In this document: one piece after another, positions 10,528 through 52,139 of the stretch
Position numbering within the stretch: the stretch's first letter is position 1
How the letters are laid out: the number at the start of each line of letters is the position of its first letter
Assembly: GCA_964566035.1 (NCBI GenBank)
Contig: CAZMHH010000001.1
Coordinates: forward strand, 21,130-85,129
Length of the DNA: 64,000 nucleotides
Reading direction: 5' to 3'
From: an uncultured Thermodesulfobacteriota bacterium
GTDB lineage: Bacteria > Desulfobacterota > WTBG01 > CAIYCZ01 > CAIRTM01
Notes under the pieces: generated by a model
What the model saw: the letters and a program-made list of their open reading frames with translations, nothing else
Databases searched by the model: none
Told to the model about the DNA's origin: nothing
Position numbers and translations under genes: made by a program

Positions 10528-10683
10528 AACTGTTCACCTTTCCTTTAATAAGGTTTATATAACTGCTTACATATATAGGCTTAAAGTTATATAATGTCAA
10601 CAGAAAATTTAAATAATGATGGGGCATAAGAAATAAAAATTACCCAAAATACGTACTTTGCCTGTTTACATGGACATATTTAT

Positions 10684-12521: not shown

Positions 12522-12603
12522 AGATCAAAAGTTAGAAGATGTAAGAAACTATATACGGGTTGTAATGTAAAATAAAATACTGCTTGATAATTAAAATACC
12601 CTG

Positions 12604-13326: not shown

Positions 13327-13339
13327 AAAATTATTTCCC

Positions 13340-13563: not shown

Positions 13564-13603
13564 TGCATGTTCCATAAAACAGTGCTGAATGGTGCATCAT
13601 TTT

Positions 13604-14380: not shown

Positions 14381-14412
14381 ATCTGTTTCCCCTTTTCTAT
14401 TGCTGTAATAAT

Positions 14413-14592
14413 AAACAAAAAAAGCCCCTGCCTTATAAATCTGTGGATGAAAAAGGCAGGGGCTTGGCTTAGGCAAAAACCACTGTTGTTTGAGTCCCTA
14501 TCCAACCACGGGAGGCAAAGCCCTTTCGGGTATTGCCCTGTCGGCTGCATTTCATAGACTATTATAGCCGTTAGAACTGACAGCTTTGGGAG
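14413..14592 (-). promoter_or_regulatory. Candidate riboswitch, copy C (aptamer about 14493-14592, 12-bp terminator 14424-14465 plus U-run) in the leader of the DUF364/ModBC operon
   Basis: The minus strand reads CUCCCAAAGCUG…GCAGCCGACAGGGCAAUACCCGAAAGGGCUUUGCCUCCCGUGGUUGGAUAGGGA. Then comes AGCCCCUGCCUU…AAGGCAGGGGCU followed by U7, 30 nt before the RBS. Confidence 0.55.
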
Positions 14593-14675
14593 TTTTTAAT
14601 CATTTTAATACGCTATTTGATTATAATATGATTATCAACATATATTTAACGCTTGACAGATTCATATTTTTAGCA

Positions 14676-14704
14676 TATTATAATCTAATAATAATTACTT
14701 GTCA
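14676..14704 (-). promoter_or_regulatory. Sigma70 consensus promoter (TTGACA-N17-TATAAT) driving the copy-C leader
   Basis: The reverse complement of 14676-14704 is TTGACAagtaattattattagatTATAAT. Confidence 0.5.
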
Positions 14705-14742
14705 ACTCTATTTGTAGTTTTTTTAAAATTAAAAATAATGCA

Positions 14743-15195
14743 GTGATGAAAACAATCAGAGAAGCGTTACATACTATTAAAAAAATCAGGGGATTTAAAA
14801 CTGACGCTGATCTTGCAGAGGATATGGACATATCACTGAACACCATGAGAAGCTGGATTAGAAACGAATCTATTACAAAACAGATCATTGCCTACTGCGC
14901 AAAACATAACATAAGCATTGATGAAACCCTGCTTGATATCCGCATTTTTAACAAAGACCGCTGCGAGCTTTGCGCTGCAAGACTGCAATGCGATGAATAC
15001 CGCAGAGCCACCAGCAATTCGCTGGTCGTTAACGAGGATATGTTCAGCCCCAAAACAATCCTGATCAACACGCATCTGACGGAAAGTATCTCATGGAAAA
15101 TGTTTCAACAGAATATCCTCAAATCAGAATGTGCCTTTGACCTTGAATTGATAGACAGAATACTGATTGAACTGCATCAGACGACTTTGGATTAG
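14743..15195 (+). CDS. Putative HTH protein (phage CI-repressor-like N-terminal HTH)
   Basis: The N-terminal 60 aa resemble the CI-repressor HTH (…DADLAEDMDISLNTMRSWIRN). Divergent from the riboswitch-C promoter. Confidence 0.35.
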   Translation: MMKTIREALHTIKKIRGFKTDADLAEDMDISLNTMRSWIRNESITKQIIAYCAKHNISIDETLLDIRIFNKDRCELCAARLQCDEYRRATSNSLVVNEDMFSPKTILINTHLTESISWKMFQQNILKSECAFDLELIDRILIELHQTTLD

Positions 15196-15275
15196 TGCGC
15201 TATGAATGGTTTTTTTTTTTTAAATGTATTTTTTTTATATAAACAAAAGTTGATTACATTTATTTCGGAGGCATT

Positions 15276-15878
15276 ATGAAAAAAGAGTTGTTTATTTTAG
15301 CGATAATATGGTCCTTGTTATTTGCAATGGGCTGCGATCCCACCTATACTGACACCAGGGACGGACAGGTCTATAAAACTGTAAAAATAGGAAGTCAATG
15401 GTGGATGGCTGAAAACATGAATTACGAAATGGATAACAGTTGGTGCTTTGAAGACGAACAGGGTAACTGCGACACCTATGGCAGGTTATATGCGTTTGAA
15501 ACAGCGCTCACTGCATGCCCTTCAGGATGGCGTCTGCCAGACAATAAAGACTGGAACATCCTAATCGACTATCTGGGAGCCATAGAAACTGCGGGCGGCA
15601 GGATGAAGGCTACAGGAACCCTTCAGGATAGCTCCGGTTACTGGCTAAAACCGAATACAGGAGCCACAAATGAAAGCGGATTTTCAGGTTTGCCGGGTGG
15701 CTCACGCAGCGGCTTTGGACATTTCAACCGGTTGGGAAGCGACGGCTACTGGTGGAGCGCTACAGACAACCAGGGGGGTAGCGCCATACTGTGGCGGCTG
15801 AGTAACAGAAGCAGCAGCATATCCGAGGACAGCTACCTGAAACAATACGGACTTTCTGTGCGCTGCATCAGGAATTAA
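15276..15878 (+). CDS. Lipoprotein with FISUMP domain (paralog of 2736 and 19023)
   Basis: Lipobox LLFAMGC and YGRLYAFETA..CPSGWRLP motifs. Confidence 0.6.
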   Translation: MKKELFILAIIWSLLFAMGCDPTYTDTRDGQVYKTVKIGSQWWMAENMNYEMDNSWCFEDEQGNCDTYGRLYAFETALTACPSGWRLPDNKDWNILIDYLGAIETAGGRMKATGTLQDSSGYWLKPNTGATNESGFSGLPGGSRSGFGHFNRLGSDGYWWSATDNQGGSAILWRLSNRSSSISEDSYLKQYGLSVRCIRN

Positions 15879-15928
15879 GAACAATTATTGTTAGTGGTTT
15901 ATGTTCAATGAGTTATGATTGAAACCGG

Positions 15929-16744
15929 TTAATGCTTATTTTGTCCAAGCCTCAAAAAACCGAAACTTTCAAACACTGCAACCGCTTCTTCTGATGCAAG
16001 ATACTCCTGCAATGCAGTGGCGGCGTCAATATTTTTTGTAGCTGAAAGCACGGCAGCCGGCACAATCTCTTCATCATAATATTTATCAGCAATCACAATC
16101 ATTGCTACACTCTCACTGAACTGAAAAGCGTCTGCTCGTCCAACAATGGAAGCATCCACAACGCCTTGAGAAACGTACATTGCAAGCTGTTTTACCGTCG
16201 CGCCGTAAACGACAACATTAGCCTCAACCCCCTCCATAATCCCAGCCCGCTGAAGAATGGTCTGAGCAGTTTTCCCAAACGCCATCGCTTGAGAATCACC
16301 CAGCGCCAGTCTAAGTCCGGGCTTTGCCAGATCATGTAGAGATTTAATCTCCCCCTCTTTTGATCTGTTTACAGCAATGACCGGCGTATGCGAAACAACA
16401 GGTTTCCAGCTCACAATTTTGCCCTGCTCATCTAACTGCTGTATATAGATAAATGAACCCGGCAGAAAAACATCACCTGTGCCGGAAACGGTTATTTTTG
16501 TCATCAGTTTCCCGCTCCCGGCATAATCCACTATAACAACGTGCCCTGTTTTTTTCTGAAAAATCTCCATAAGCCGGTCAACCGGATGTCTCAGCCCAGC
16601 CCCGGCATACAGGCGCAACTCCGCGGCAACAGAAGCTGTCGCATTAACCGACAGGTAAAGCATCAAAAGGGCGCAAACACCGGTTAAAATGAATCTTGTC
16701 ATAGGGGCAGCGCCCGACTGTTTTTTTCTAATTTTATTTCTCAT
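15929..16744 (-). CDS. modA: Molybdate/tungstate ABC transporter periplasmic binding protein (ModA/WtpA-like)
   Basis: Signal peptide and PBP type-2 fold motifs (YAGSGKL, GDVFLPG). The likely start is MRNKIRKK with RBS GGAGGA. The ORF track extends it to 16822, overlapping the porin gene. Confidence 0.6.
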   Translation of the reverse strand: MRNKIRKKQSGAAPMTRFILTGVCALLMLYLSVNATASVAAELRLYAGAGLRHPVDRLMEIFQKKTGHVVIVDYAGSGKLMTKITVSGTGDVFLPGSFIYIQQLDEQGKIVSWKPVVSHTPVIAVNRSKEGEIKSLHDLAKPGLRLALGDSQAMAFGKTAQTILQRAGIMEGVEANVVVYGATVKQLAMYVSQGVVDASIVGRADAFQFSESVAMIVIADKYYDEEIVPAAVLSATKNIDAATALQEYLASEEAVAVFESFGFLRLGQNKH

Positions 16745-16776
16745 AGAATACTGTCCTCCATCGTTTACTTGTTCTA

Positions 16777-18216
16777 TCACAGGAGCCCTTTGCTGAACCG
16801 GTATTCCCACTGAACAAAGCACCAGTTTGCCGGTCGATTGGACGCCATTGTTTTGGCAAACGTATCAGGCCAAAACCGCCCGAATCCTGCCATGACCCTG
16901 TTGCCGTACGGCAGTCTGAGCGTTGCGACAACATCAAACTCTTTGCCCACGCTTTTTCCGCTGCTGCCCGTCCTGTCCCGGTATATCTGCTGGTTCAGGT
17001 ACCAGGCATCCTTCCGTTCAGCAAGCATAAACTTATGAAATTCAAATTTTATATCAAGCCACGATGCCGGACTGAGCTCAATATTTGCCTGCAAATCCTG
17101 AAGGTTCATCCAGTGAAACAGATTCATCCTGCCATACATCTGATCCCTTGCGCCAAAGGCGCCATGAAAGGTTCGGCACACCCCGTCATCGGGATTGTCA
17201 TCTCCTGAAGCGTAACTGTATTCTATGCTCAACCGGGGGTTAAACCTCATCGGAAGATTGTATGCCAACATCAGGTGATAACCGTATGCCCTCAGGTTGT
17301 CTTTTGCGAAATCGCCCCGTTCCTGAAGCAGTGTCGCGTCAAAATCAAAACGCTTGATATTTTTGCCGGAAATTCTCACCCCCGCATACCATGAATCAAG
17401 TGCGCCCTGCTTTCGATAAGTAACACGGCTGCCGTCGGGCTGAAGATAGTAACCCTGCTTTTCCCCCCTGTAACGTCGATGATGGTCTCTTTTGGTAAAC
17501 ACCATCGGTTCGACCGATATCTCAAAGGTTTTCTGTAGAACATCATACCTGGCATAAAGACCGATGCTCTCAAATTCATGTCGATGCCTCAGACTGAACC
17601 TTTGGACATCATGGAGCATATTGCGGCCGTAATAGATATCAACAAACCCCCGCTGATGCTTCCATGATATCTTGGCGGCATCCCAAATATAACGCCCTGA
17701 ATTGCCCCACTGACCGGGCCCAAACACCCGGTTGTTGCCGTAGGCGATTAACTGTCTGCCTATTTTAAAACCAAGCCCTGCATCAAATAGATTTTTAACC
17801 TCGATAAATGTCGTATAGAGTTCCCAGTAATCCTTGTTCGGGTTGTTCTCAAATTGATGGGTATTGTTGTAAAACGCTGAATCCGGCAGTGCGCTGCCCC
17901 AGCAGGTGGAATGCTGTCCCCACAGGGCAATATGTATTTTATCGGTCGGATACCAGTCCACCCCCGCCCTGAAGCGTCCCAGCAGAAAACCGTCATCAGT
18001 TTTTCCCCTTGCAGGTCTTTCCCCGTAGTATTTCTGATTGAAATTATCATAAAATTCATACCTCAGCCGGAGATTTGAACTAAATGTGAGTCTCTTTTTT
18101 TCTGTTTCGCATGCGGACTGCTGTTTTGCCTGAAGCAAAGATGAACAGAGCAGCAACATGGCCATTAAAAAAATTACTGAACAGATTTTTTTTACTATAT
18201 TACATTGTGCCTTCAT
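16777..18216 (-). CDS. Outer-membrane beta-barrel porin (alginate-export/putative porin-like), first gene after riboswitch copy D
   Basis: Signal peptide, alternating amphipathic strands, and a C-terminal …RFSKGLL. Immediately upstream of modA-like. Confidence 0.5.
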   Translation of the reverse strand: MKAQCNIVKKICSVIFLMAMLLLCSSLLQAKQQSACETEKKRLTFSSNLRLRYEFYDNFNQKYYGERPARGKTDDGFLLGRFRAGVDWYPTDKIHIALWGQHSTCWGSALPDSAFYNNTHQFENNPNKDYWELYTTFIEVKNLFDAGLGFKIGRQLIAYGNNRVFGPGQWGNSGRYIWDAAKISWKHQRGFVDIYYGRNMLHDVQRFSLRHRHEFESIGLYARYDVLQKTFEISVEPMVFTKRDHHRRYRGEKQGYYLQPDGSRVTYRKQGALDSWYAGVRISGKNIKRFDFDATLLQERGDFAKDNLRAYGYHLMLAYNLPMRFNPRLSIEYSYASGDDNPDDGVCRTFHGAFGARDQMYGRMNLFHWMNLQDLQANIELSPASWLDIKFEFHKFMLAERKDAWYLNQQIYRDRTGSSGKSVGKEFDVVATLRLPYGNRVMAGFGRFWPDTFAKTMASNRPANWCFVQWEYRFSKGLL

Positions 18217-18240
18217 ATTTTTCCTTTATCTTGCCAGATA

Positions 18241-18410
18241 TAAAAAAAAACGCTGCCTTATCTATCGGTGGAAGAACATGGCAACGGCTTTAATAAAAAC
18301 CCCTGTTGCGTGAATCCCTATCCAACCACGGGAGGCAAAGCCCTTTCGGACAAAGCCCTGTCGGCTGCTCCTCATGGGCTGTTATGACCGTTAGAAGAAA
18401 ACAGCTTCAG
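18241..18410 (-). promoter_or_regulatory. Candidate riboswitch, copy D (aptamer about 18313-18410, terminator 18251-18287 plus U9) in the leader of the porin/modA unit
   Basis: Nearly identical to copy C through the CCGACAGGGCUUUGUCCGAAAGGGCUUUGCCUCCCGUGGUUGGAUAGGGA core. A 7-bp stem and U9 lie just before RBS AAAGGAAAAAU-ATG. Confidence 0.55.
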
Positions 18411-18505
18411 AACCTACAATCAGTTTATGCTACTAAAGTATTATATTTTGACTATTAATATCCATATAAAATTCCATTCAGTCACATTATGCTAAATTGT
18501 AATCT

Positions 18506-18534
18506 AATATTAATCACCTGTCAACTCTTTTTTT
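18506..18534 (-). promoter_or_regulatory. Sigma70-like promoter (TTGACA-N17-TACAAT) driving the copy-D leader
   Basis: The reverse complement is TTGACAggtgattaatattagatTACAAT. It lies in the same position as the copy-C promoter within the 250-bp duplicated block. Confidence 0.45.
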
Positions 18535-18834
18535 GAAAATAATTGAAATTGATTTATTTAATTGATCTTCCTGCTGGATACAGGTAACATTGCGCCGATT
18601 GAATTGATTTAAAACGAGGGCAATTTTAGTGACTTAAAAGTTATTTTTTTGCATTATCTGGCAAAAAATATTTCAGTGGAGGGAAATAGCCTTGAAAACA
18701 GGAGACAGAAGTCAGAGGTCAGCTTTCAGGTATCAGCAAAAAACAGGAGTCAGAGCAATAGCAAAAACCGACTACGATCACGACCACGAAAGGGTTTTGC
18801 TGACAACTGATACCTGACAGCTGCTTATTGCTAC

Positions 18835-18885
18835 CAGCTAACCCGGGCATTGTATTGGTTCCGGCTTGTCCGGTTTGGGTTTTAA
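18835..18885. repeat. Short structured intergenic repeat ('R element': cccgg.ca…ttggttccggNttgtccggtt), copy 1 of 3
   Basis: Shares about 45 nt with 24518-24562 and 30915-30958. Contains the internal palindrome CCGGAC…GTCCGG. Confidence 0.5.
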
Positions 18886-19022
18886 GTTTTAGGTTAAATT
18901 TTAAGATTGATAACAGAAAAGAATGGGTTAGAAGATTCTTTTGCTTTGAGTTTTTTTGGTTTTTTTCATCTTTTATGCTTGTATGCTTTTGTGCTTTCAA
19001 ATTAGAGGGTGTCCAGGATTAA

Positions 19023-19877
19023 TCAATTTTTGATACACCGCACAGATCCGGCATAAATTTTGTGGGCAATACCCCTGTGAATCTCAGCGTTAAAATAACG
19101 CAGCACCCTGAAATAGGAAAAATCCACACCATTATCGTTCGAACACCACCAGTAACCGTCAATACCAATCCCGTAAAACTCCCCGCCGGGGTAACGTCTG
19201 CCGCCGGGCAGTCCTGAAAACCCGCTTGAGTTGACCCCCGATGTATTGGGGGATTCCCATAGTCCCGTGCCGCCCTGCAGGGTTCCTGCTGCCTTCATCC
19301 TGCCGCCTGCAATACTTTCTCCCCCAAGATAATCTGCCAGCAGGTCCCACTCCACGTCAGACGGCAGGTGCCAGCCTTCAGGACAGGCATCTGTTGCGTT
19401 TTCCCAGTCATAAAGTCTGCCGTAGAGCAGACAGTTATCATCTGTTTCGTCATAGCACCAACTGTTCTGAATGCTGTAATTTAAATTTTCCGCCATCCAG
19501 AGCTGAGACCCGATTCGTATGGTTTTATATGTCCTGTCATCCCTAGGATCGGTCATTTCTCCGTAATCCGGCTCAGGATAAACTATCTGCTCAAAGTTTG
19601 CAATCAGCACCCGGCTGTGGAACACTGTGAAGGTGTAATTCGCATTTGTTGTCAAAATCTGATCATCTTCTGTCCAGGAAACAAACCGATATCCTTCAGA
19701 AGGTATGGCAGACACGCTAATCTCACTTATTCTTTCAAACAGACCGCCGCCCTCTACCCTCCCCCCTTCCTCAGGACGGGCAATAAGGGTAATCTCCAAA
19801 GGCTCATCCGGTTCACAGCCTGATGCAAACAGGAAGAGTGTCAGCAGAATTAAGAATATACAAGACTTGGTTTTCAT
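19023..19877 (-). CDS. Lipoprotein with FISUMP domain (paralog), longer N-terminal region
   Basis: Lipobox LFASGC and YGRLYDWENA..CPEGWHLPS motifs. Confidence 0.6.
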   Translation of the reverse strand: MKTKSCIFLILLTLFLFASGCEPDEPLEITLIARPEEGGRVEGGGLFERISEISVSAIPSEGYRFVSWTEDDQILTTNANYTFTVFHSRVLIANFEQIVYPEPDYGEMTDPRDDRTYKTIRIGSQLWMAENLNYSIQNSWCYDETDDNCLLYGRLYDWENATDACPEGWHLPSDVEWDLLADYLGGESIAGGRMKAAGTLQGGTGLWESPNTSGVNSSGFSGLPGGRRYPGGEFYGIGIDGYWWCSNDNGVDFSYFRVLRYFNAEIHRGIAHKIYAGSVRCIKN

Positions 19878-19892
19878 GTTTGAATCCTCTTC

Positions 19893-20492
19893 TTAAAAAT
19901 TAACTTTATTGTCATACCGCGGATTTGTTAAATGTTGATACATCTCCGGCGTATCAACATCAATTCCTGCAAGGGCATCAGAAATATTAACCGTGCGCAG
20001 ACTGTCAGGGTGATGCTGAATAACCTGCCTTCCGCCAACATCCCCTGTAAGCGCCATAAGGCTGTTTTTAAAGCGTGAAGGAAAAATAACAGGATTTCCA
20101 CGCTCCCCATTGTATAACGGCACAACAATTCTGTCTTTATCCTTCCACCAGAGGGTAATCAACCCATCGATTGTTTCGGAGTTCAAATACGGCTGATCCC
20201 CAACCAGAAACATATAGGCTTCTGTTTTATCCGCTACGGAACAAACCCCCAGTATTACCGAAGCGCTCTGTCCTTCCGAAGCATTCGGGTTGAAGATTCT
20301 TCTGACATTGTATGACCTGACAGCATTGCCGACTTTTTCGTTCTGATAGATAACAATCAGCTCATCAAGAAGCGAGTTACTTGCAGCCCTGACCACCCGC
20401 TCAATAACCGGTACCCCTTCAATCAGAAGAAGGAGTTTTTCCTGCTTCATCCTTTCAGAAAACCCCGATGCCAGTATTATCCCGCTAACCAT
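19893..20492 (-). CDS. MobA-like NTP-transferase, probable molybdenum cofactor cytidylyltransferase (MocA-like)
   Basis: N-terminal ILASGFSERM nucleotidyltransferase motif. Lies in the xdh-family accessory cluster. Confidence 0.6.
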   Translation of the reverse strand: MVSGIILASGFSERMKQEKLLLLIEGVPVIERVVRAASNSLLDELIVIYQNEKVGNAVRSYNVRRIFNPNASEGQSASVILGVCSVADKTEAYMFLVGDQPYLNSETIDGLITLWWKDKDRIVVPLYNGERGNPVIFPSRFKNSLMALTGDVGGRQVIQHHPDSLRTVNISDALAGIDVDTPEMYQHLTNPRYDNKVNF

Positions 20493-20507
20493 TTACCGAG
20501 ACACCTT

Positions 20508-21359
20508 TCATGATGAATATATACGCCCACTGGAAAGACAGGATATGATAACCCCTGAAATATCTGATACGCTCCCTTTTTTCATAACCGTCTCAGCAAT
20601 GCGTTTTGCCGCGATTCTTCTCAGCGCATTCTCTGCCTTGTTCAGCAGAACATATCTGAAACTGGAACGGCAGACCCCCTTGAACAGTCCCCGTTCAGAA
20701 AGAATCAGACTGACGAGCAAATTCCTGCCGATCTTTTTTCCGATATAACCGCCAGTTACTGAACAGAAGAGATGGGGTCTGTGCACATATTTGTCAATCA
20801 GCGGTTTTCCAAGCGCATCGAGTCCAATCACCCCGACCGTTTTTGTGGTCTTCCGGGGGACTACCGGCTCATAATCAGCAGGGGCTTTTACAGGTTTCCG
20901 CTTAGCCCCGTCTGCCTCAACCAGTATAAACTCAAATTTTTTTTCACTAAATATTGTATCAACTGCCTCAGGAGACACGCCAAAGAGTTTTCCTTTCTGA
21001 TCATCAATCCGGTCCCCGAAACAGACCGCAGTACCGGCACAGGATTCAGGAAAACAGTCCTTCACATCACCTGACAACATCAGCCTGTCAAACAGAAAGG
21101 CTTCCCGTCTTGCCATCTGTGTCGTGGTGGTTACCAGCACTTTTTTACCTTCGGCTTTAAGTTCCTGAGAGAGTGTATGGATGGCAGAAGATTTCCCGCC
21201 CCCCCCTACAAAACAGATAAGTTCCTGAGATTGCAAATTAAGAGCTTCTGACAATTTCATGACCTTCTTATGCCCTGGGATTGCAGCAGGGCGACTGTTT
21301 AGCCCCGGTGTAACCGGCGCTTCTGACCTGTATGATTTCAGCAAGAATGGAGACAGCAA
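20508..21359 (-). CDS. YqeC-like selenium-dependent molybdenum hydroxylase accessory protein (P-loop GGGGKSS)
   Basis: P-loop motif and size resemble the YqeC family. Positioned between mocA-like and xdhC. The 5' end overlaps xdhC in the track, so the true start may be internal. Confidence 0.45.
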   Translation of the reverse strand: MLSPFLLKSYRSEAPVTPGLNSRPAAIPGHKKVMKLSEALNLQSQELICFVGGGGKSSAIHTLSQELKAEGKKVLVTTTTQMARREAFLFDRLMLSGDVKDCFPESCAGTAVCFGDRIDDQKGKLFGVSPEAVDTIFSEKKFEFILVEADGAKRKPVKAPADYEPVVPRKTTKTVGVIGLDALGKPLIDKYVHRPHLFCSVTGGYIGKKIGRNLLVSLILSERGLFKGVCRSSFRYVLLNKAENALRRIAAKRIAETVMKKGSVSDISGVIISCLSSGRIYSS

Positions 21360-30899: not shown

Positions 30900-32165
30900 T
30901 TATTTAAACAGGCGAACTGACCCGGACATACGTCTTTTGGGTTCCGGCTCGTCCGGTTCAGCTCTATTGTAATATTGCCCAATATCATAGTTCATCTGGG
31001 CAAAGGGAGTGGGATAGTGTTCAGCAATTTTTCTTTTTTTGTAATAGACACACCACGTACCATTAAGCAGCCTGCGCACTTCCACGCGCGCCATCGCATA
31101 TGAAATGCGGTCAACTCCCGGTGAAATTTTAATTCCCACACCGTTTATAGTAACGGTATTATTGCAATCAACCGTTCTCTCATAATAACGGCTGCAAATT
31201 CGACATAGATCAACATGTTCAGGAACTTCCCGCCATGCCTGTCTCCTGCTCTGCGGTGCAAAGGAACATCTGTAATTGTAGTCATAGAGAAACTGTCTAT
31301 CAAGAAACAGATTGCCCTCCCTTATGTTTTGAATTGCATGTTTTGCTATCTCATCTGCAAGCAGGCTTTCAAGTCTAAAAAGAAGATTTACAGCATTTCT
31401 TCTTGGAATATGCTCATGTTTGATGCCAAGTTCTTCAAGCGCCCGTTCAACAGGGTTTGTTTCAGGGAACCCCTGGAGTTCTTCCTTTATGGTCATGTTT
31501 TTTTTTCTTACTTTTACTGCATTTCGGCTATGCTGACAAAGAGATTGCGGAATTCCGCATCTAATAAGCATTTTTTTTAAAAGCCATAAATAACCGTCTG
31601 TAGTTTCTGTTGCAAAGAAATTAGCACACAAACATCTTAATGTGGTCATATCCACAGCAGCCATAAAACAACACTCAGGATGTGGATCAGGAAACCATTT
31701 TTGGGTCAGCCCTCCCCAGAGTACCATACCCCCTTCCTTTCCGGACAGGCTGTAAGATTTGGTGCGTCTAACTCTTTTCTGCACATGCTTGGGGCCGGGA
31801 TTTTCAGAAGCTAATATTTTTCTGACCGTTTCCCGACTGACTTCAATTTGATGATTTTGAAGAAGTTTTTCAGAAATCTGTGTATAGTTCAGTCCACGAT
31901 AAAGGGATTGAGAAAGAGATATGATGAATTTTCTCATATCATCATCAATCGCAAGAGCAGGTTTTTTGCCTTTATTGCCATGTTGCAGCCCTGACAGCCC
32001 TTTTTCCTTAACTGTTTTTTTAAGTCGTTTTGCCTGCCTGTAACTGATGCCTATACATTCGGCTGCCTCGCGCAATGTAATGCAACCATTAAGCACTTTT
32101 TCGATATAGTAAAATCTATTCTGCTGTTTTTTATCCGGTTTTATTTTTTCCATGATAATATTCAA
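30900..32165 (-). CDS. IS-like HTH plus integrase-core (DDE-type, ISNCY/IS481-like) transposase homolog. The second catalytic Asp is apparently replaced.
   Basis: N-terminal HTH (ITLREAAECIGISYRQAKRL), and central D…E residues aligned with the paralog at 33617. Terminal inverted repeats were not found. Confidence 0.4.
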   Translation of the reverse strand: MNIIMEKIKPDKKQQNRFYYIEKVLNGCITLREAAECIGISYRQAKRLKKTVKEKGLSGLQHGNKGKKPALAIDDDMRKFIISLSQSLYRGLNYTQISEKLLQNHQIEVSRETVRKILASENPGPKHVQKRVRRTKSYSLSGKEGGMVLWGGLTQKWFPDPHPECCFMAAVDMTTLRCLCANFFATETTDGYLWLLKKMLIRCGIPQSLCQHSRNAVKVRKKNMTIKEELQGFPETNPVERALEELGIKHEHIPRRNAVNLLFRLESLLADEIAKHAIQNIREGNLFLDRQFLYDYNYRCSFAPQSRRQAWREVPEHVDLCRICSRYYERTVDCNNTVTINGVGIKISPGVDRISYAMARVEVRRLLNGTWCVYYKKRKIAEHYPTPFAQMNYDIGQYYNRAEPDEPEPKRRMSGSVRLFK

Positions 32166-32376: not shown

Positions 32377-32403
32377 TTAAAATAAATATTAAATATACTT
32401 ATC

Positions 32404-32560
32404 TCCAAGCCGTTGTTTTCTAAGGTCACAGAGACTATGATGCGCGGCCGAAAGGGTTTTGTTCGAAAGGACACTGCCTCCCGTGGCTGGAAAGGAGAAT
32501 AGGCACAGGAATTATAAAAGACCTGTCCCCGGTTCTGCCGCGGACAGGTCTTTTTTTTGG
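32404..32560 (+). promoter_or_regulatory. Candidate riboswitch, copy E (aptamer 32404-32505, 10-bp terminator 32519-32551 plus U8) in the leader of the MoCF_biosynth-domain gene
   Basis: The plus strand reads CUCCAAGCCG…GCGCGGCCGAAAGGGUUUUGUUCGAAAGGACACUGCCUCCCGUGGCUGGAAAGGAG. Then comes AGACCUGUCC…GGACAGGUCU followed by U8 and RBS GAAAGGGAAAAU-ATG. Confidence 0.55.
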
Positions 32561-33616: not shown

Positions 33617-34831
33617 ATGATGAACTCCAGGCTATTGGAAAAATGGCAGATAATAAAGCAGGTTATTGAGGGAAGTAAAACCCTTAAACATGCTAGCCGT
33701 GAGCTTGCGGTCAGTTACCGGCAGGCAATCCGTATTAAAGATTCAGTCACTAAACACGGGATTCGCGGACTTATTCACGGCAATACCGGCAGAAAACCTG
33801 TAAACACCCTTAATCCTGAGGTTCAGGCGCTTATACTGAGGCTCTCAAAGGATAGCTATGCCGGATTATGCGACACACTTTTTTCCGAGCATCTGTTTAA
33901 ACAGCATAACATCTCCGTAAGCAGGGAAACAGTTCGTAAAATAAGAAGAGCCGCCGGTATAAAACCAGTACAGATCAAACGCTCTTCCAGAACAAAAGAA
34001 TTGATTGCCAAACCCAAAGAAGGCAGAAGAATAATGTGGTATGCATTAAATAACAGATGGTTTGGCGATCAGTTCTATCCCTGCTGCCTCCTTGCGGCAA
34101 TTGATGAAGCAACCTACCGATGCATCGCAGCCCGTTTTTTTCCATACGAAGAAATATCCTGCTATCTTCTGCTCTTAAAAGAGATTATTAGCAATTGGGG
34201 TATTCCCCACAGTATCATTCAGGAGAGCAATGATATTCTAAAACGTTCTTCAAACGACTGGAGCATTGAAGAGGAGCTACAGGGATATCAGACCCCTACA
34301 CAGGTGGAACGTGCTTTGCATGAACTGAATATTGAAATCATTTATACAACAAATAAACGACAGAAAAGCAAACTGACACAACTTTTCAGTCAGTTCCATA
34401 ATGAGATTACCTCTGAAATACTCAAAAAAAATGTTTCAGATATCAGAGAGGTAAATATTTTTTTAAATAATTTCATGTCTGAATTTAACAAAAATTATGC
34501 TGTTCAGGAAACACGGGTTATAAAGGTTTGGAAGAGCCCCCCTTCTGCAAAGGAAGTGGATAGAATATGCAGTTACTATTATGAAACTAATGTCAAACCC
34601 AACAATACGGTTGTGATCGGTCGGGTCAAAATCAAACTGCCTGCCAAGTGGGAAAGTCTTGCATATTCCGGGGTAAAGATTGAGGTACGGCAACTGCTTG
34701 ATGGGACATGGAAAGTCTATTACCAAAAACAGCCCATAGCCGAGCTTACCGAAAGCTCCAAAATTGAAATAAAAAAAACAAAAGTTAACAGCCTTCAACC
34801 TGACATCCGGATACATGAAGCAAGGGTTTAA
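33617..34831 (+). CDS. IS-like HTH plus integrase-core (DDE: AAIDEAT / ESNDIL / QVERAL) transposase homolog, paralog of 30900..32165
   Basis: About 30% identity to the other copy across the full length. It starts only 11 nt after the MoCF gene stop. Confidence 0.4.
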   Translation: MMNSRLLEKWQIIKQVIEGSKTLKHASRELAVSYRQAIRIKDSVTKHGIRGLIHGNTGRKPVNTLNPEVQALILRLSKDSYAGLCDTLFSEHLFKQHNISVSRETVRKIRRAAGIKPVQIKRSSRTKELIAKPKEGRRIMWYALNNRWFGDQFYPCCLLAAIDEATYRCIAARFFPYEEISCYLLLLKEIISNWGIPHSIIQESNDILKRSSNDWSIEEELQGYQTPTQVERALHELNIEIIYTTNKRQKSKLTQLFSQFHNEITSEILKKNVSDIREVNIFLNNFMSEFNKNYAVQETRVIKVWKSPPSAKEVDRICSYYYETNVKPNNTVVIGRVKIKLPAKWESLAYSGVKIEVRQLLDGTWKVYYQKQPIAELTESSKIEIKKTKVNSLQPDIRIHEARV

Positions 34832-46202: not shown

Positions 46203-47114
46203 TCACTCAAAAATCACCAGAACATTATCAGCTTCCTGAGCTATAAATTCTCTCATTAAAACAGCAATTTTATGGAATGAATTTTCATCAATATCAAATC
46301 CGTTCTTATTGATAAAATCAAGAACCGGTGGTGTAAGTATCTTTGATGTTTCAACCTCCTCTTCTTCGTCAATACATGTAAAACCCTCAAGCTTTGTAAA
46401 AATATTTGCAAGAAAAGCAATTATTGATGCGGATGTGTTATTTTTGTCATGCCAGGGGGCATGATGATAGCATATTTGCATTACAACTCCCTGCGGAATT
46501 TTCCAGCGCTGAAGAAGGTTTGCGGCAATCTGATAATGGGTTGTTCCTAAAACTTCTTTCTCTGCCCTGCTGAAAGTAGAATTATTTTCAGTTATATAAT
46601 CAATTATTCTGGAGAAATCCTCTTTAAAATACTGAGCTATAATTAGCTTGCCTATATCATGCATCAATCCTGAAAGGAAAAAAGAACCATCATCCAATAT
46701 ATCAAAATATTTACCAAGATATTTTGACATCTGACTGCAGATAATTGAGTGCCGCCAGAATCTCTTAATATCAAGCCTGTCTCCTGCACTGTTAAAATGT
46801 TTCTGCATGGAAAAACCAAGGACAATATTTCTTACTTCATTAAAGCCAAGAAGTATAAGAGCCCTTTCAACAGTGTTTACATTGTTGATAAACCCGTAAA
46901 AGGATGAATTAGCAAGTTTCAGAATCTTCAAGGCCAAGGGCGGATCTTGTTCAACAAGATCCAAAATCTGTTTAAATGTTACATCATCTTTATTTTTAAA
47001 CAGCTTTTGAATATATTCACCAACTGCAGGTATGGTTGGAATTTCTTCTATCTTGTTTACTATTTTTTCAATTTTTTTATTTTTATCCATAATTCTGTTC
47101 TCTTTTCTGTTCAA
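46203..47114 (-). CDS. HDOD domain protein
   Basis: HD-related output domain motifs. Last gene of the GspE-like/MinD-like operon. Confidence 0.65.
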   Translation of the reverse strand: MNRKENRIMDKNKKIEKIVNKIEEIPTIPAVGEYIQKLFKNKDDVTFKQILDLVEQDPPLALKILKLANSSFYGFINNVNTVERALILLGFNEVRNIVLGFSMQKHFNSAGDRLDIKRFWRHSIICSQMSKYLGKYFDILDDGSFFLSGLMHDIGKLIIAQYFKEDFSRIIDYITENNSTFSRAEKEVLGTTHYQIAANLLQRWKIPQGVVMQICYHHAPWHDKNNTSASIIAFLANIFTKLEGFTCIDEEEEVETSKILTPPVLDFINKNGFDIDENSFHKIAVLMREFIAQEADNVLVIFE

Positions 47115-47143
47115 TAAGTCCTACGCCAGCACTGTAATCCGCT

Positions 47144-48511
47144 CTATTTTTTTTGTTCATTTTGTTGTAAATAACGTTTTGGGATATAGTTTTCAAAATC
47201 GAGTTTGATCGGCTTCTTAACACTGTTTTGAAGCTGTTCATCTGACTGTTTTGTTGATTTAATAATTCCGCTGCCATTAGAGGCTATTGATTCACGCATA
47301 AGTTTTATTTCTGAAGAGACAGAACTTATGCTTTCAACAAGTTTGTTAAAAAAAACCTGTCGATTCTGGTATGAAAAGGGGTTTTCATCCTTTGGCAAGG
47401 GCTGCTTTATATGCAATTCGTTATTATCTTCTGTTTCCTGGATTTCTGTTTTTTCTTTTATAGCAGAATCCGGGGTCAGCTCTTTTATAACCGCATCCTT
47501 CTTGTCTGGTTCATCTGTTGAAACTTTTTCGTCATAACCATTATCCTTTATTGAAGACGGCGTCAAGAATTGTTCTTTTGAAACTGCTAAAGATGGCTTT
47601 GGGGAAATATTTTCAGCAGGAGACTGGGGCTCATTCTCTACATGCCGATCAGTTTTTTCTTGATTCTCTTCTGTTGCCTTGAAATGGAGCCTTCCGGAAA
47701 ACAGAGATATAAAACGTTTTAAAAACTGGTCAGGAGTCTGATTTTGAAAACCCTCCTCTTTCTGTTTTACAAGATTTGCAGCTATTGCTCGTATGCATTT
47801 TGACGCTGAGGTTTCGGGATATAACAGAATAAAAGGTTTTTGTCTCTCTACAGCCTCTTTAACTTTTGCATCTTCAACTATAAATCCTAATGGCTGTATA
47901 TCAACGGAAAGATATTTTTTTACCACATCTCGAAATTTTATATAAGTATTTTTTGCTACATTTGTATTCTTACAGCCATTGACAACAACCTTTACAGGAG
48001 CAGAAAAACCGTTAAGGCACAATACCTTTAAAAGCGCATATCCATCAGTTAGGGAAGTCGGCTCTGAGGTTATTACCAGTGTTAAAACATTTGCCGAAAG
48101 ACAGAATGAAACAACGTTGCGTGCTACACCGGCAGAAGTGTCAAAGAAGAGATAATCATAGTTCTCAAGACATGAGAATGATTTAATAAGCTTATCAGTC
48201 TGCTCTGGCTCAAGATCAGCTATCTTTTCCACACCTGAACTACCAGGTATTATGTCAATACCGTGATAGTTTTTCATGATAATATCCTGCAGAGGAACAT
48301 CATGATAAATAACGTCCTCTATTGTCTTCTCTGTATAGATTCCAAAAAGTATATTGATATTTGCAAGCCCAAGATCGGCGTCAAAAACACATGGTAAAAA
48401 CCCCTGAGAAGCAAGCTGGACGGAGAGATTTGCTGTAAGACTTGTTTTACCCACCCCTCCTTTACCGCTTGTAATTACAATTATTTTTGTCATTTTATCA
48501 ATTGTCTCCAA
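47144..48511 (-). CDS. MinD/ParA/FlhG-family P-loop ATPase with about 200-aa low-complexity acidic C-terminal extension
   Basis: Deviant Walker A SGKGGVGKTS. The start overlaps the stop of the GspE-like gene. Confidence 0.7.
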   Translation of the reverse strand: METIDKMTKIIVITSGKGGVGKTSLTANLSVQLASQGFLPCVFDADLGLANINILFGIYTEKTIEDVIYHDVPLQDIIMKNYHGIDIIPGSSGVEKIADLEPEQTDKLIKSFSCLENYDYLFFDTSAGVARNVVSFCLSANVLTLVITSEPTSLTDGYALLKVLCLNGFSAPVKVVVNGCKNTNVAKNTYIKFRDVVKKYLSVDIQPLGFIVEDAKVKEAVERQKPFILLYPETSASKCIRAIAANLVKQKEEGFQNQTPDQFLKRFISLFSGRLHFKATEENQEKTDRHVENEPQSPAENISPKPSLAVSKEQFLTPSSIKDNGYDEKVSTDEPDKKDAVIKELTPDSAIKEKTEIQETEDNNELHIKQPLPKDENPFSYQNRQVFFNKLVESISSVSSEIKLMRESIASNGSGIIKSTKQSDEQLQNSVKKPIKLDFENYIPKRYLQQNEQKK

Positions 48512-51158
48512 CCGCTGTTATCTCAGCGGCTCCCTTGTTTGAAGATATATCAAAACATACTTTTGAACAATTATATTTTTCAGTAATGATTGAAAAATTT
48601 TCTTTAATAAATTCACTGAACATATTAAGTTTGGCTTCCTTGTATTTTTTGTTAACTGCTTTATTGATAAAGTTATATTTTTCAAGCATTTGTTCAATGG
48701 TGTCTAATTGTTTGTCAGGGTTTGATATTATAAAACTCTGAACAGTCATGCTCTCGGTTGCCTTCTTGCCGCTTCCGTCAAAAAGATTGTCCATAAGATC
48801 ATTGAGATCATTCTGGACCTTTTTCTGGGATTTGAATGTCTTTATTAAATCATGTGGTATTACCCTTATAAGTTCACCCAGAGTTGTATCATTTAGTTTC
48901 ATCAGTCCATCTTCAAGCATTGATTTCATGCCTGATTCAATGGCAATCTTCTTTATCTCTGACTCAGAAGACCTTTCGCTTATTGCAGCGGAAATCTCCT
49001 TGTCAATAACAAATATCTCTGAAATAAGGGTTCTTCCCTTATAACCCGTAAAATTGCATGACTCGCAACCCGCACCCTGAAAGAAATTAAGGTGTGATGG
49101 ATAAGAGTCAAAAATAACACGCCATTCGTCCTCTGAAGGAATATATTCCTTCTTGCAGAATGGGCATATTTTTCTAAGTAACCTTTGCGCAACCACTGCA
49201 AGCAGACAAGATGCAATCTGCGCATGGTCGATTTCAAGGTCAAGAAGACGGGATACAGCGCTTATTGAATCATTTGTATGAATGGTGCTGAGCAGAAGGT
49301 GCCCGGTTTGCGCTGCATCAAAACCTATCTGGGCTGTTTCAGAATCCCGCATTTCACCAACAAGAATAATGTCAGGATCACTTCGCAGGAATGACCTCAG
49401 AAGACGGGGAAAGGTTATACCAATTTTTGGCTGTATCTGAGTCTGCATAATACCCGGAAAACTGTATTCAATTGGATCTTCCGCGGTAATAATTTTAACC
49501 CCGGGACTATAAACATGAAGCAGGGCTCCGTAGAGTGTTGATGATTTTCCGCTTCCTGTAGGCCCCGACACAAGAACCATTCCTGCTGAACTCTTAAGCA
49601 GACGCTTCATGGGATCGAGAACATGAGGTGAATGCTGAAGGTTTTCAAGACCTACGTTTGCTTTTCTTGAATCAAGTATTCTTATTGTTACATTTTCTCC
49701 GACAATAGCCCTGCAGGTAGCAACACGAAAGTCAATATCAAACTTGTCTTTTTTTGCAGTATCATAAAAGTTGATCCTGAACACTCCGTCCTGAGGAAGC
49801 CTTTTTTCGGCAATATCTAAATTCGACATGACTTTGATTCGAGATATAATTGCCCCTGCCTTCTCTTTTATCCGTCTTCTAAGCCAGTCTATTTTTGTCT
49901 CCTCAAGAACACCATCTATTCTGAAACGAAGTTTGGGACCTTTTCTATCCTGCTCGATATGGATATCGCTTGCGTTGTGAACAATTCCATATTTTATGAT
50001 ATAATTGACAACCTCTTCCGCTTCCATGTCCTGATAACCCCTGGCATAGGGCTTGTCATCATCATCAGCAAGGGTCTCGTCAAATTCAAAATCCATAAAA
50101 TTTACATCCATCGTCTCTTCTGTATCATCAACTTCTGATTCATCAAGTTTAATCTTTTTGCTGTAAAGCAGCTCAAAGAGTTCATCAAATTTCTCCTCTG
50201 TTATAAAACAGCATGAGATACTGAGATTGGGATAGAGGCTGCGAAGTTCATCAATAAAATTGTGCTTTATTGGTCTGCATATTGCGACTTGAAGCTCTTT
50301 ATTCATTAAGGAAACAGGCAGAACAAGGTTTTTTTCTGCATATTTCTGTTTTATTACGTTGACAAGTTCATTTTTTTCGGAAGGGTTGTAGGAAAAATCG
50401 TTTAAAGGCATATAAGGTAAATTATACCTTTTTGAATAGGCAATCTGGAGTTGTTCTGAAGTGATAAACTTTTTACGGAGCATTATTTTTTCAAGAGACT
50501 CAGATGTCCCCGCCTGCTCACGTTTTGCCTCATTAACTATTGAATCACTTATAAATCCAAGCCTGAGCAAAATATCTGATATTTCACCCTGTTTATTATA
50601 TTTTTCAAGAACATAGTTAAGATCATAAATACTGACAACATTCATTTCACAGAGAATTTCCCCTAACGTCCTTGTAATCTTCTGCCGGCGAAGAGCGTTC
50701 TGGAGATCGTTTTCTGTTATTAGTTTAAGGTCAACAAGCACATGTCCAATCTTAGGGGACGATATCTGCTCTTTTAAAAGGTTGCCAAGATCATCATTGC
50801 TGAGCATCCCAAGCTTTACTAAAACCTCCCCTATCATCTGTCCCGGAAGTTTCTTATTCAATGCCTCTGCAAGTTCATCTTTGGTAATATAGCCCTTTTC
50901 AATGGCAAGGGATCCAATATTTTTACGTAAATTTGGATGATTTAGAGCTTCTTCAAGGTCATCTTCAGAGATATAACCTAACTTAACAAGAAGTTTACCA
51001 AGAGGCAGTTTTGCTGATTTTTTTTCTTCTTCCTGCTGTTTGAGAGCTTTTTCAATATCCTTCACCTTGGCATAACCTTCTGATACAAGAAGATCTCCTA
51101 TTTTAAGCGGAGATACTGCTGTTTTGCTAACATTTTTATTTAACACAACGCTTCCCAC
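48498..51158 (-). CDS. GspE/PilB-family secretion ATPase homolog with about eight tandem MshEN-type 24-aa motifs at the N-terminus and a about 170-aa C-terminal extension
   Basis: Walker A GPTGSGKSS, Walker B DIILVGEMRD, His box, and a tetracysteine Zn site CPFC…CESC. The N-terminus has repeated [LI]Gx[LI]LVxxGYI[ST]xx[DQ]LxxAL motifs. Confidence 0.75.
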   Translation of the reverse strand: MGSVVLNKNVSKTAVSPLKIGDLLVSEGYAKVKDIEKALKQQEEEKKSAKLPLGKLLVKLGYISEDDLEEALNHPNLRKNIGSLAIEKGYITKDELAEALNKKLPGQMIGEVLVKLGMLSNDDLGNLLKEQISSPKIGHVLVDLKLITENDLQNALRRQKITRTLGEILCEMNVVSIYDLNYVLEKYNKQGEISDILLRLGFISDSIVNEAKREQAGTSESLEKIMLRKKFITSEQLQIAYSKRYNLPYMPLNDFSYNPSEKNELVNVIKQKYAEKNLVLPVSLMNKELQVAICRPIKHNFIDELRSLYPNLSISCCFITEEKFDELFELLYSKKIKLDESEVDDTEETMDVNFMDFEFDETLADDDDKPYARGYQDMEAEEVVNYIIKYGIVHNASDIHIEQDRKGPKLRFRIDGVLEETKIDWLRRRIKEKAGAIISRIKVMSNLDIAEKRLPQDGVFRINFYDTAKKDKFDIDFRVATCRAIVGENVTIRILDSRKANVGLENLQHSPHVLDPMKRLLKSSAGMVLVSGPTGSGKSSTLYGALLHVYSPGVKIITAEDPIEYSFPGIMQTQIQPKIGITFPRLLRSFLRSDPDIILVGEMRDSETAQIGFDAAQTGHLLLSTIHTNDSISAVSRLLDLEIDHAQIASCLLAVVAQRLLRKICPFCKKEYIPSEDEWRVIFDSYPSHLNFFQGAGCESCNFTGYKGRTLISEIFVIDKEISAAISERSSESEIKKIAIESGMKSMLEDGLMKLNDTTLGELIRVIPHDLIKTFKSQKKVQNDLNDLMDNLFDGSGKKATESMTVQSFIISNPDKQLDTIEQMLEKYNFINKAVNKKYKEAKLNMFSEFIKENFSIITEKYNCSKVCFDISSNKGAAEITAVGDN

Positions 51159-51587
51159 TTCAGTTATCCTTTTATGTAGGTTGAAAAATGTTAAAACACT
51201 GAAAAAAATAAAACCCTGTTCATACAGAAAAAATCTTCTGATTATTCCTTGTTTTTTGCTGTATGTTTTTTATTTTGCTCTCTTTATTTATCTCTGTTAT
51301 CGGACTATTTTATAATTATTTTAGTTTTTTATAAAAAATAACATGTTTTAATTATGATATCAATACAAAATCATCAAGATTTAATCAATCTTGATGGACC
51401 GGTAAAAAGTCCCCCGCTGTCAACTCGAAAGCAGCAAGAGGTCTCATAAAAGATTGAAATAAAGGGATTTATCAATTCATTTGAAATGACAAAAAAGGTG
51501 GATTTCATTGCTTTTTGCGTATCAATAAACTTTATAACTAATAAAAGCAGACCGGGGTTACAACATCAAACACTTAAATGATATTTT

Positions 51588-52139
51588 TTATCCAAGTCTG
51601 TATTTTTTGCTGCCTTCCTCATAAAGATCCCCTCCATATATATCATTTACAACAAAAGCGTGGAATCCTTCAACTGTAATCCTCCTTAAAGCTTCAGCTC
51701 CAAGTTCCTGATATGCAATAACCTCTGACTCTTTTATTGTTTTTGAAATAAGCGCACCCGCACCTCCTACAGCTGCAAAATAGACTGACTTATACTCTAT
51801 CATAGCCTCTTTTACCTGTATTGAACGAGCCCCTTTTCCTATCATGCCTCTCAAACCTTCTGCAATAAGGCGTGGGGTATATACATCCATCCTTCCACTT
51901 GTAGTGGGGCCTGCAGAACCTATTACACTACCCGGGGGTGCGGGTGTCGGTCCCATATAATAAATTGTCTGATCCTTCAAATCAAAAGGAAGACTTTCTC
52001 CTCTTTCAAGGGCTTCAATAAAGCGTTTGTGAGCCGCATCTCTTGCCACATAGAGTATTCCGTTTAAAACAACCTCATCCCCAGTTCTAAGGCTTTCAAC
52101 TGTTTTAATATCAAGGGGAAGATTTATGGAAAGTTTCAT
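51588..52139 (-). CDS. Fe-S hydro-lyase beta subunit (class I fumarate hydratase / tartrate dehydratase beta)
   Basis: Fumerase_C domain. Confidence 0.8.
   Translation of the reverse strand: MKLSINLPLDIKTVESLRTGDEVVLNGILYVARDAAHKRFIEALERGESLPFDLKDQTIYYMGPTPAPPGSVIGSAGPTTSGRMDVYTPRLIAEGLRGMIGKGARSIQVKEAMIEYKSVYFAAVGGAGALISKTIKESEVIAYQELGAEALRRITVEGFHAFVVNDIYGGDLYEEGSKKYRLG

Follow-up and report, generated by a model that had tools for sequence, protein, structure and literature searches.

The DNA described here (the window) is a stretch of 64,000 nucleotides (nt) from contig CAZMHH010000001.1 of an uncultured Thermodesulfobacteriota bacterium (assembly GCA_964566035.1). Within positions 46203-51158 there are three co-directional minus-strand open reading frames (ORFs). 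They encode an ATPase of the PilB/GspE class, a MinD-type ATPase, and an HDOD protein, referred to below as the triad (Table 1). An earlier note, made from the sequence alone, had described a GspE/PilB-family ATPase, a MinD/ParA-like ATPase, and an HDOD protein at this position, and this is borne out by the Pfam matches T2SSE, ParA/CbiA/AAA_31, and HDOD. It had also taken the three genes for an operon. Between the ATPase stop codon (TGA) and the ATG of the second gene at 48493 there are 4 nt, with a GGAG inside the last ATPase codons, and dozens of Desulfobacterota loci with differing flanks have the genes in the same order, ATPase, ParA-like, HDOD. The ATG at 48493 and the ATG at 47090 of the HDOD gene are the likely starts, in preference to the TTG codons at the ends of the two ORFs. 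The product of the second gene is identical to a database protein of 449 amino acids (aa), P0272.

The layout of the PilB/GspE-class ATPase is (MshEN_N)3-MshEN-linker-T2SSE-linker-C-terminal domain. A full secretion-ATPase core with a Zn tetracysteine is present, as had been proposed. T2SSE covers aa 380-758 (E 3e-110), and the Walker A/B motifs, Asp box, His box, Arg-finger region, and tetracysteine (C665, C668, C698, and C701) are at least 90% conserved in 114 full-length orthologs. Judged from these retained motifs, the hexameric ATPase is predicted to be catalytically intact. Its best match in the PDB is Myxococcus xanthus PilB (3jc8, aa 191-764, E 5e-100), and further best solved relatives are PilF of Thermus thermophilus, Geobacter PilB, and GspE. 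The scores for the equivalog models of PilB (TIGR02538, 460 bits versus a cutoff of 675.65) and GspE (TIGR02533, 446.7 bits versus a cutoff of 630.25) are below both cutoffs. By sequence, the ATPase belongs to a subfamily of its own within the PilB/GspE class.

The N-terminal region contains eight repeats of 24 residues, each a helix-loop-helix, which span aa 19-244 and start at aa 19, 52, 80, 108, 136, 164, 192, and 221. The period is 28 residues throughout, save for a 9-residue first spacer. The count agrees with the earlier note, which had given about eight tandem MshEN-type motifs, and all six of its example peptides are present in the translation. The repeats do not fill about 330 aa, as it had stated. 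They are followed instead by the MshEN_C subdomain (aa 245-334) and an acidic linker (aa 335-378). A scan with the MshEN/T2SSE_N models had been suggested for the count, and its outcome was divided. The Pfam model named MshEN (PF05157) describes the C-terminal subdomain and is therefore unfit for counting the repeats; it matches only aa 245-334. NF053729, an NCBIfam model of a 53-residue MshE-related c-di-GMP (cyclic dimeric guanosine monophosphate) motif, was used in its place and matches four stretches (135.8 bits versus a cutoff of 38, E 3e-40).

These stretches are described here as modules A to D, each with two motifs. Pairs in this register score 51.0, 45.7, 49.1, and 29.6 bits, and offset pairs score 50.9, 47.4, and 28.4 bits. 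Because the offset pairs score as well, the register was taken from alignments with PilB and MshE and from the loop lengths in an AlphaFold2 (AF2) model. Residues 5-68 of MshE (5HTL) align to aa 76-138, with motifs I-II on module B (E 4e-8), and the sequence of PilF matches the N-terminus three times. Module D is the one in the canonical position, from which M. xanthus PilB and TIGR02538 align (aa 191-193). No tandem repeat was found in the array at the DNA level, and every repeat motif is individually conserved among the orthologs. The array is therefore old and has been kept by selection.

The AF2 model of aa 1-372, made with 26 sequences, has a mean predicted local distance difference test score (pLDDT) of 80.5. 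It contains 16 helices and then a beta-sheet domain at aa 259-332. The array helices have a pLDDT of about 80-94, and those of module A are at aa 20-26, 32-49, 53-59, and 65-72. Foldseek matched the model to c-di-GMP-bound PilF GSPII-B, MshE (5HTL), and Xanthomonas citri PilB-N. The fold matches, 8PDK among them, have a target-normalised template modelling (TM) score of about 0.8 over about 145 columns. The Foldseek output holds no query positions, and the matched part is probably module D together with aa 245-334, that is, one complete MshEN domain. A complete MshEN (MshEN_N and MshEN_C) is present once, and the other three modules are without MshEN_C. Tandem complete GSPII/MshEN domains of the PilF type were not found, as there is a single PF05157 region and motifs 1-8 are contiguous.

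The number of modules is not what sets this ATPase apart. Canonical MshE and PilB do carry one pair, as the earlier note had it, but multiple modules were already catalogued in 2016, as (MshEN)2-, (MshEN)3-, and (MshEN)4-T2SSE and (MshEN_N)2 proteins (Wang et al., 2016). An exhaustive search with aa 1-245 of the ATPase returned 1769 representatives at E <=1e-3, many of which are unrelated proteins with three to five matched stretches. In the sampled proteins there are up to eight NF053729 copies in CheA/Hpt-like proteins, six in a 466-aa protein, and four in a bona fide PilB. Module multiplicity itself is already known. The exact layout of the ATPase, its C-terminal domain, and its set of partners were not found in the 2016 catalogue or in the literature searched. 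Four unrelated public proteins, P0149, P0164, P0138 (1158-1184 aa), and P0140 (466 aa), have arrays that exceed that of the ATPase in size. They contain six to eight NF053729 copies, some with CheA/Hpt-like segments.

The C-terminal extension of the ATPase had been put at about 170 aa. It is about 120 aa (766-886) and consists of a linker and an 80-aa domain whose fold AF2 predicts with confidence. This domain has no match in Pfam or NCBIfam and no PDB fold match with E <0.001. A profile search returned only two fragments and no relatives outside the family, within a reach limited by the word prefilter. Across loci, the domain co-occurs with the FlhG-like and HDOD partners. That the domain and the partners were gained or lost together suggests, without proving it, that the domain is a docking site.

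The second protein of the triad matches the Pfam families ParA/CbiA/AAA_31 and possesses a deviant Walker A motif, SGKGGVGKT, with the signature lysine. Its best PDB matches are FleN (5j1j, 164 bits) and FlhG (4rz2, 150 bits), with 8pb9 also among the best solved relatives (150-164 bits). MinD gives 90 bits or less, and the protein is below the NCBIfam MinD cutoffs. These comparisons indicate that it is of the FlhG/FleN type and not a generic ParA, which refines the MinD/ParA assignment of the earlier note. The alignment to FlhG (4rz2) reaches as far as residue 291 of the 295 in the chain, where FlhG has its amphipathic helix. The segment FLKRFISLFSGRL (family consensus FWKRCLGLFKSPL) is conserved at this position, and about 185 residues follow. 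A flagellar context for the gene (flhF, fliA, fleQ) was not found among the window neighbours, and none is conserved in related loci. The suggestion that the triad could position a polar machine gains indirect support because the partner is of the FlhG/FleN type rather than a generic ParA, and it stays a suggestion. FlhG-like relatives with 40-43% identity (P0381, P0383, and P0384; L062 8001-10013) are fused to cNMP_binding and PatA_N/DUF4388, and their genes are solitary, close to others of chemotaxis type (Hpt, REC, MCP).

The third protein matches HDOD (PF08668) over the whole profile (positions 1-196 of 196, 182.4 bits versus a gathering score of 22.9, E 9e-54). Its closest solved relative is Geobacter sulfurreducens 3hc1 (E 3e-28), a structure in which five His and one Asp coordinate two iron ions (PMC12075610). 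H122, H152, D153, H193, H217, and H218 align to the ligands of 3hc1, with conservation of at least 90% across 38 orthologs. The HDOD protein keeps all positions of the di-metal ligands, and it is predicted to bind metal. The likeness to 3HC1 is a full-length match. SadB and GsmR are listed with 3HC1 among the closest HDOD proteins; SadB differs in that it is without most of the HDOD metal ligands and acts as a proteolysis adaptor. A defence role for the triad was also considered through PADLOC. Its models gave no match for the ATPase or the ParA-like protein, and for the HDOD protein only an 18.8-bit HD-domain match to Cas3c, with no defence-system membership.

FlhG-like and HDOD domains also occur in single proteins (P0346, P0329, P0336, and P0354, with P0329 also containing GAF). 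Such fusions argue that the two proteins work together. The fusion P0346 (L061 860-3199) is in a metagenome-assembled genome (MAG), JAQYWL01, that also carries the full triad (L011). No ATPase gene is present in the 860 bp upstream of this fusion, up to the contig end. In the literature searched, no HDOD protein paired with a PilB-type ATPase is reported, and searches for HDOD with PilB or ParA yielded no description of the triad.

Full-length orthologs of the ATPase form more than 110 clusters, with lengths of 875-900 aa and 50-66% identity. Every cluster that bears a name carries the label Desulfobacterota, Thermodesulfobacteriota, or Desulfobacterales. A scan of species-representative genomes identified 58 loci, and all that are classified below phylum are Desulfobacterota. 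They belong to Desulfobacterales, Desulfatiglandales, and Desulfobulbaceae; among them are a MAG of Desulfosudis oleivorans (L013), in which the triad is present, and an isolate, Desulfurivibrio dismutans AMeS2. The order ATPase, FlhG-like, HDOD is found in 36 loci, and ATPase with FlhG-like in nine more, several of which are cut by contig ends. The co-occurrence that the earlier note had proposed to look for in other genomes is thus present in about 45 loci of sulfate-reducing Desulfobacterota, and their flanks are unrelated. No further neighbour is conserved around the triad, and the flanks are wholly different between loci. Neighbours that are found in a subclade only, namely a divergent gene of ~300 aa upstream, a zinc-ribbon protein, and a FadB-like gene downstream, were judged to be lineage synteny and not members of the module. 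In L010 (18264-20533) and L012 (11621-13890), and only there, two adjacent PilT-like ORFs (360 and 391 aa) are located about 5.6 kb downstream of the triad. In the locus of D. dismutans AMeS2 (L046 9962-14826), the ATPase is split into 580 and 408 aa and the HDOD protein into 250 and 72 aa. Frameshifts, pseudogenes, or errors of assembly may account for the split ORFs.

A sister paralog of the ATPase, about 715 aa in length, was identified in seven loci (L052-L058). It scores 764-856 bits to the query, versus about 300 bits for canonical PilB. It possesses six repeats and has neither the C-terminal domain nor FlhG-like or HDOD neighbours. In L057, the paralog (9950-12088) is located in a pilus cluster resembling that for mannose-sensitive haemagglutinin (MSHA), with neighbours spanning 4257-20722. 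BatA-D/VWA/TPR genes come first there, then the paralog, and after it a PilM-like protein of 633 aa, a secretin, an AAA ATPase of the MshM/ExeA-like kind, and a canonical MshE/PilB of 569 aa. A pilus cluster of this type has two PilB-type ATPases, since both the paralog and the canonical ATPase are present. Two MAGs contain both the triad (L017 and L023) and the sister-paralog cluster (L057 and L058). Another relative, of 812 aa (L050), is without the C-terminal domain and both partners.

Several known systems resemble parts of the triad. T. thermophilus PilF and Deinococcus PilB, which are (MshEN/GSPII)3-T2SSE proteins, are alike in the PilB-class core and the Zn site. PilF, too, has several N-terminal modules of the MshEN type (some are c-di-GMP binders, one is a non-binder), and it supplies the top structural matches to the N-terminus studied here. 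Its repeats are complete GSPII domains with N and C subdomains, whereas here three bare MshEN_N bundles precede one complete domain. In addition, PilF is without the 80-aa C-terminal domain and without FlhG-like or HDOD partners, and it is the pilus and competence motor of its organism. Vibrio cholerae MshE shares the 24-residue motif, the spacer, and the four-helix bundle, and the sister paralog is found in an MSHA-like cluster. However, the single module of MshE matches R-L-G...Q perfectly in both motifs (86 bits versus 30-51 here), and its gene is inside the msh pilus operon.

FlhG and FleN control flagellar number and placement, and FleN antagonises the c-di-GMP-binding ATPase FleQ. The FlhG-like protein has in common with them the deviant Walker A motif with its signature lysine, and a segment of it is conserved at the place of FlhG's membrane-targeting helix. 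Unlike them, it is encoded outside a flagellar operon and without an flhF neighbour, has a C-terminal extension of about 185 aa, and pairs with a PilB-type ATPase, not an AAA+ ATPase. In the Tad systems, the MinD/ParA-family protein TadZ/CpaE is encoded beside the secretion-superfamily ATPase TadA/CpaF and localises that machine. TadZ begins with a receiver-like domain and its Walker A is atypical, and the Tad locus has platform and pilin genes. The likeness of TadZ/TadA to the triad is in concept only. TadA/CpaF belongs to another, smaller ATPase clade, and CpaF matches the ATPase only at E about 1e-7.

The earlier note had called the motifs c-di-GMP-binding and the whole a c-di-GMP-gated module. 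The motifs are genuine MshEN_N homologs, but binding is not established, as no pair fully fits the consensus, and the same holds for gating. Gating of the ATPase by c-di-GMP is plausible from its sequence, and at least one of the modules probably binds the nucleotide, if by no great measure of confidence. The main determinants of binding are a backbone amide contact at Gly3 and the Leu cluster of hydrophobic positions, which hold the guanines (PMC5013675). In motifs 1-6, Gly3 is 94-100% conserved among orthologs. Positions 2, 17, and 21 are hydrophobic throughout and mostly 85-100% conserved (range 37-100%). Known non-binders typically lose Gly3 and the hydrophobic residues, as in XpsE with G11V, G40L, L29R, and L54H. 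The residues at positions 1 and 24 are K/Q and P/P in motifs 1 and 2 (module A), N/K and M/Q in motifs 3 and 4 (module B), and K/Q and T/Y in module C, so that P, N, M, or T is found at some position 1 in pairs A-C. PilF GSPII-B has K or L at position 1 and binds with nM affinity, with which other hydrophobic residues there are also compatible; PilF that lacks one of the two terminal Gln still binds at 0.5-1 uM, and only the double mutant abolishes binding (PMC11731258).

A number of observations weigh against c-di-GMP sensing and a motor output. The relaxed published pattern is fitted by two of the eight motifs only (1 and 3), with no pair in which both fit. One Gln24 is missing in each of pairs A-C (P75, K103, and Y187), module C has K/N in place of the inter-helix Gly at position 10, conserved in the family, and module D has S and E at position 3 of the ATPase studied, where Gly is the family majority. 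PilF GSPII-A, which experimentally fails to bind c-di-GMP (PMC12002112), scores 55.7 bits with NF053729, more than every pair here (29.6-51.0 bits); the MshE control scores 86.1 bits. Because a non-binder outscores all pairs, a match to this model shows homology and not binding. In 53 loci, GGDEF (diguanylate cyclase) genes are near the triad in one, which is no enrichment, and EAL or PilZ genes are not systematically near it. No Rfam element is found in 51000-51700, and no c-di-GMP riboswitch is upstream of the triad. No pilus platform gene adjoins the triad in the window or in the 53 loci, which makes the motor output a guess. The earlier note had seen no pilin, PilC/GspF, or secretin genes nearby, and in the whole 64-kb window there is no pilin, T2SSF, secretin, or PilMNO family among ORFs of at least 120 aa. 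Finally, essentially two clades and one outlier are behind the association of C-terminal domain and partners, which is therefore not phylogenetically independent.

In the reading put forward here, tentatively and with somewhat less than an even chance of being right, the ATPase is a c-di-GMP-sensing PilB-type motor that is recruited by the FlhG-like and HDOD proteins and acts in trans on a pilus platform or one resembling that of a type II secretion system (T2SS). One or more of modules A-C would sense c-di-GMP, probably with a lower affinity than MshE or PilF, and binding would change how the N-terminus of the ATPase holds the motor. The hexamer would be recruited or licensed by a membrane-associated FlhG-like dimer in its ATP-bound form, acting with the metal-binding HDOD protein. 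This recruitment may occur through the C-terminal domain of the ATPase and the conserved tail of the FlhG-like protein, in a manner resembling TadZ-TadA or FleN-FleQ; the step is suggested by translational coupling, co-occurrence, and the fusions. The motor would then act on an MSHA-like type IV pilus or a T2SS-like platform elsewhere in the genome, as suggested by the context of the sister paralog and the retained N1/N2 docking domains.

The same array can possibly be a ligand-free scaffold, in which the extra MshEN_N modules lost nucleotide binding and dock or space partners, for instance the FlhG-like ATPase or the HDOD protein, or regulate the hexamer. This is an unlikely account, yet one with real precedents in PilF GSPII-A, XpsE, and the PilB-N of X. 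citri, whose binding partner is PilZ instead; the PilB-N/PilZ complex (7lkm) is among the top Foldseek matches. Every pair deviates at positions 1, 10, and 24, and binding is lost in GSPII-A constructs whose motif II has Ser at position 1, or that have H/R at position 24 (PMC12002112). Conservation extends to the deviant residues themselves (P52, H74-P75, K/N at position 10, and Y187), a hint of selection for something besides the canonical site. The high score of the non-binder GSPII-A and the lack of diguanylate cyclase enrichment also fit a scaffold. The conserved Gly3 and hydrophobic positions of motifs 1-6, and the nM affinity of a PilF module with K and L at position 1, speak for retained binding.

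The output could also be something other than a motor. The module might have been co-opted into a signalling or positioning device for the flagellum, the pole, the division site, or the envelope, similar to FleN-FleQ. This is improbable, more so than a scaffold. In its favour are the absence of any link between the triad and pilus genes in the 53 loci, the unique C-terminal domain, scores under both equivalog cutoffs (460 versus 675 and 447 versus 630), a partner closest to FleN/FlhG, and the FlhG-like-HDOD fusion found without an adjacent ATPase. However, the catalytic and Zn motifs and the platform-docking N1/N2 domains are all conserved, the nearest paralog is in a pilus cluster, PilT-like genes are located downstream of the triad in two loci, and gene context points to no alternative target. 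That the protein is an ordinary type IV pilus PilB, with pilus genes elsewhere and unrelated neighbours, is very hard to credit. The best overall matches are PilB proteins, and public annotations name the orthologs PilB or T2SS/type IV pilus ATPase, but the three-gene synteny with its 4-nt junction, the score under the PilB cutoff, and the extra modules and C-terminal domain all speak against it. In the two MAGs with both the triad and the paralog cluster, that cluster also includes the gene of a canonical ATPase of 569 aa. A bolder proposal, which is decidedly improbable, is a new type of machine for integrating second messengers, in which a hexamer derived from PilB, its nucleotide sites numbering up to 24 (four per subunit), serves as an ultrasensitive c-di-GMP integrator or sponge. 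An FlhG-type ATPase and a metal- or redox-sensing HDOD protein would control its membrane and polar engagement through the new C-terminal docking domain, and its output would be neither a classical pilus nor a T2SS.

Table 1. Positions of the triad genes, their parts, and other features in the window
Feature	Position	Strand	Evidence or remark
PilB/GspE-class ATPase gene	48498..51158	-	886 aa, GTG start, AAGGA 8-9 nt upstream
MshEN_N-type module A, motifs 1-2, aa 19-75, 9-residue spacer	50934..51104	-	NF053729 51.0 bits
MshEN_N-type module B, motifs 3-4, aa 80-131	50766..50921	-	NF053729 45.7 bits
MshEN_N-type module C, motifs 5-6, aa 136-187	50598..50753	-	NF053729 49.1 bits
Degenerate MshEN_N module D, motifs 7-8, aa 192-244	50427..50585	-	NF053729 29.6 bits, below cutoff of 38
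MshEN_C / T2SSE_N1 alpha-beta subdomain, aa 245-334	50157..50426	-	PF05157 41.8 bits; AF2 pLDDT about 90
Acidic, poorly conserved linker, aa 335-378	50025..50156	-	pLDDT <50; mean conservation 0.47
N2 and catalytic ATPase core, aa 380-765	48864..50021	-	Walker A/B, Asp box, His box, Arg fingers
Zn tetracysteine CPFC...CESC (C665, C668, C698, C701)	49056..49166	-	Sequence and ortholog conservation
Variable linker of 40 aa before the C-terminal domain	48744-48863	-	ATPase
Family-specific C-terminal domain, aa 806-886, beta-alpha-alpha-beta-beta	48501..48743	-	AF2 pLDDT 84-97
FlhG/FleN-type MinD-family ATPase gene	47144..48493	-	449 aa from ATG 48493; ORF reaches TTG 48511
Tail of FlhG-like protein	47147..47701	-	Conserved segment, acidic/Pro-rich variable linker, conserved block (44 orthologs)
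Conserved C-terminal block of FlhG-like protein, about 60 aa	47177-47359	-	Alignment of 44 orthologs
Single-domain HDOD protein gene	46203..47090	-	295 aa from ATG 47090; ORF reaches TTG 47114
Promoter-like hexamers ahead of ATPase	51307-51363	-	Consensus scan only
Terminator-like hairpin, 3' of upstream fumarase gene	51372-51396	-	Consensus scan only
Molybdenum/tungsten cofactor (Moco) riboswitches	9002-9129, 9270-9392, 14479-14603, 18298-18424	-	Rfam
Moco riboswitch	32391-32513	+	Rfam

In the window, the triad is flanked by genes for a HydABC-type [FeFe] hydrogenase, fumarase, and glycolate-oxidase-like proteins. Elsewhere in the window, five Moco riboswitch aptamers, including a tandem pair, exceed the gathering score of Rfam with 40.6-82.2 bits. 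These are upstream of porin-like genes, a substrate-binding protein/ABC transporter, DUF364/DUF4213 genes, and a MoCF_biosynth gene. The region also contains two xanthine-dehydrogenase-type molybdenum (Mo) enzymes and XdhC, MobA-like, and YqeC genes, and it is an unusually dense molybdenum/tungsten (Mo/W) regulon. Three paralogous proteins with the Fib_succ_major domain are found across the Mo/W transport region, at 2736-3329(+), 15276-15878(+), and 19023-19877(-). Two ORFs of about 400-420 aa, at 30900-32165(-) and 33617-34831(+), flank the MoCF_biosynth gene that is under Moco riboswitch control. Both have only N-terminal HTH_29/HTH_32 matches and may be transposase-like.

Few c-di-GMP receptor folds are as widespread as MshEN, whose best understood route to the control of surface behaviour is through PilB-type motors. 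In the literature searched, no description was found of the elaboration seen here, with a bare MshEN_N stack before one complete domain, a new C-terminal domain, and obligate FlhG-like and HDOD partners. The triad is confined to the Desulfobacterota, in which c-di-GMP signalling and pilus biology have been little studied. If the modules do not bind c-di-GMP, they would be a clear example of MshEN profile matches over-predicting receptors. If they do, four non-identical sites would be a natural series for graded or cooperative sensing, and HDOD, a domain without an established mechanism, would gain a concrete partner and an assay. The ParA-HDOD fusions make the partnership of the FlhG-like and HDOD proteins directly testable.

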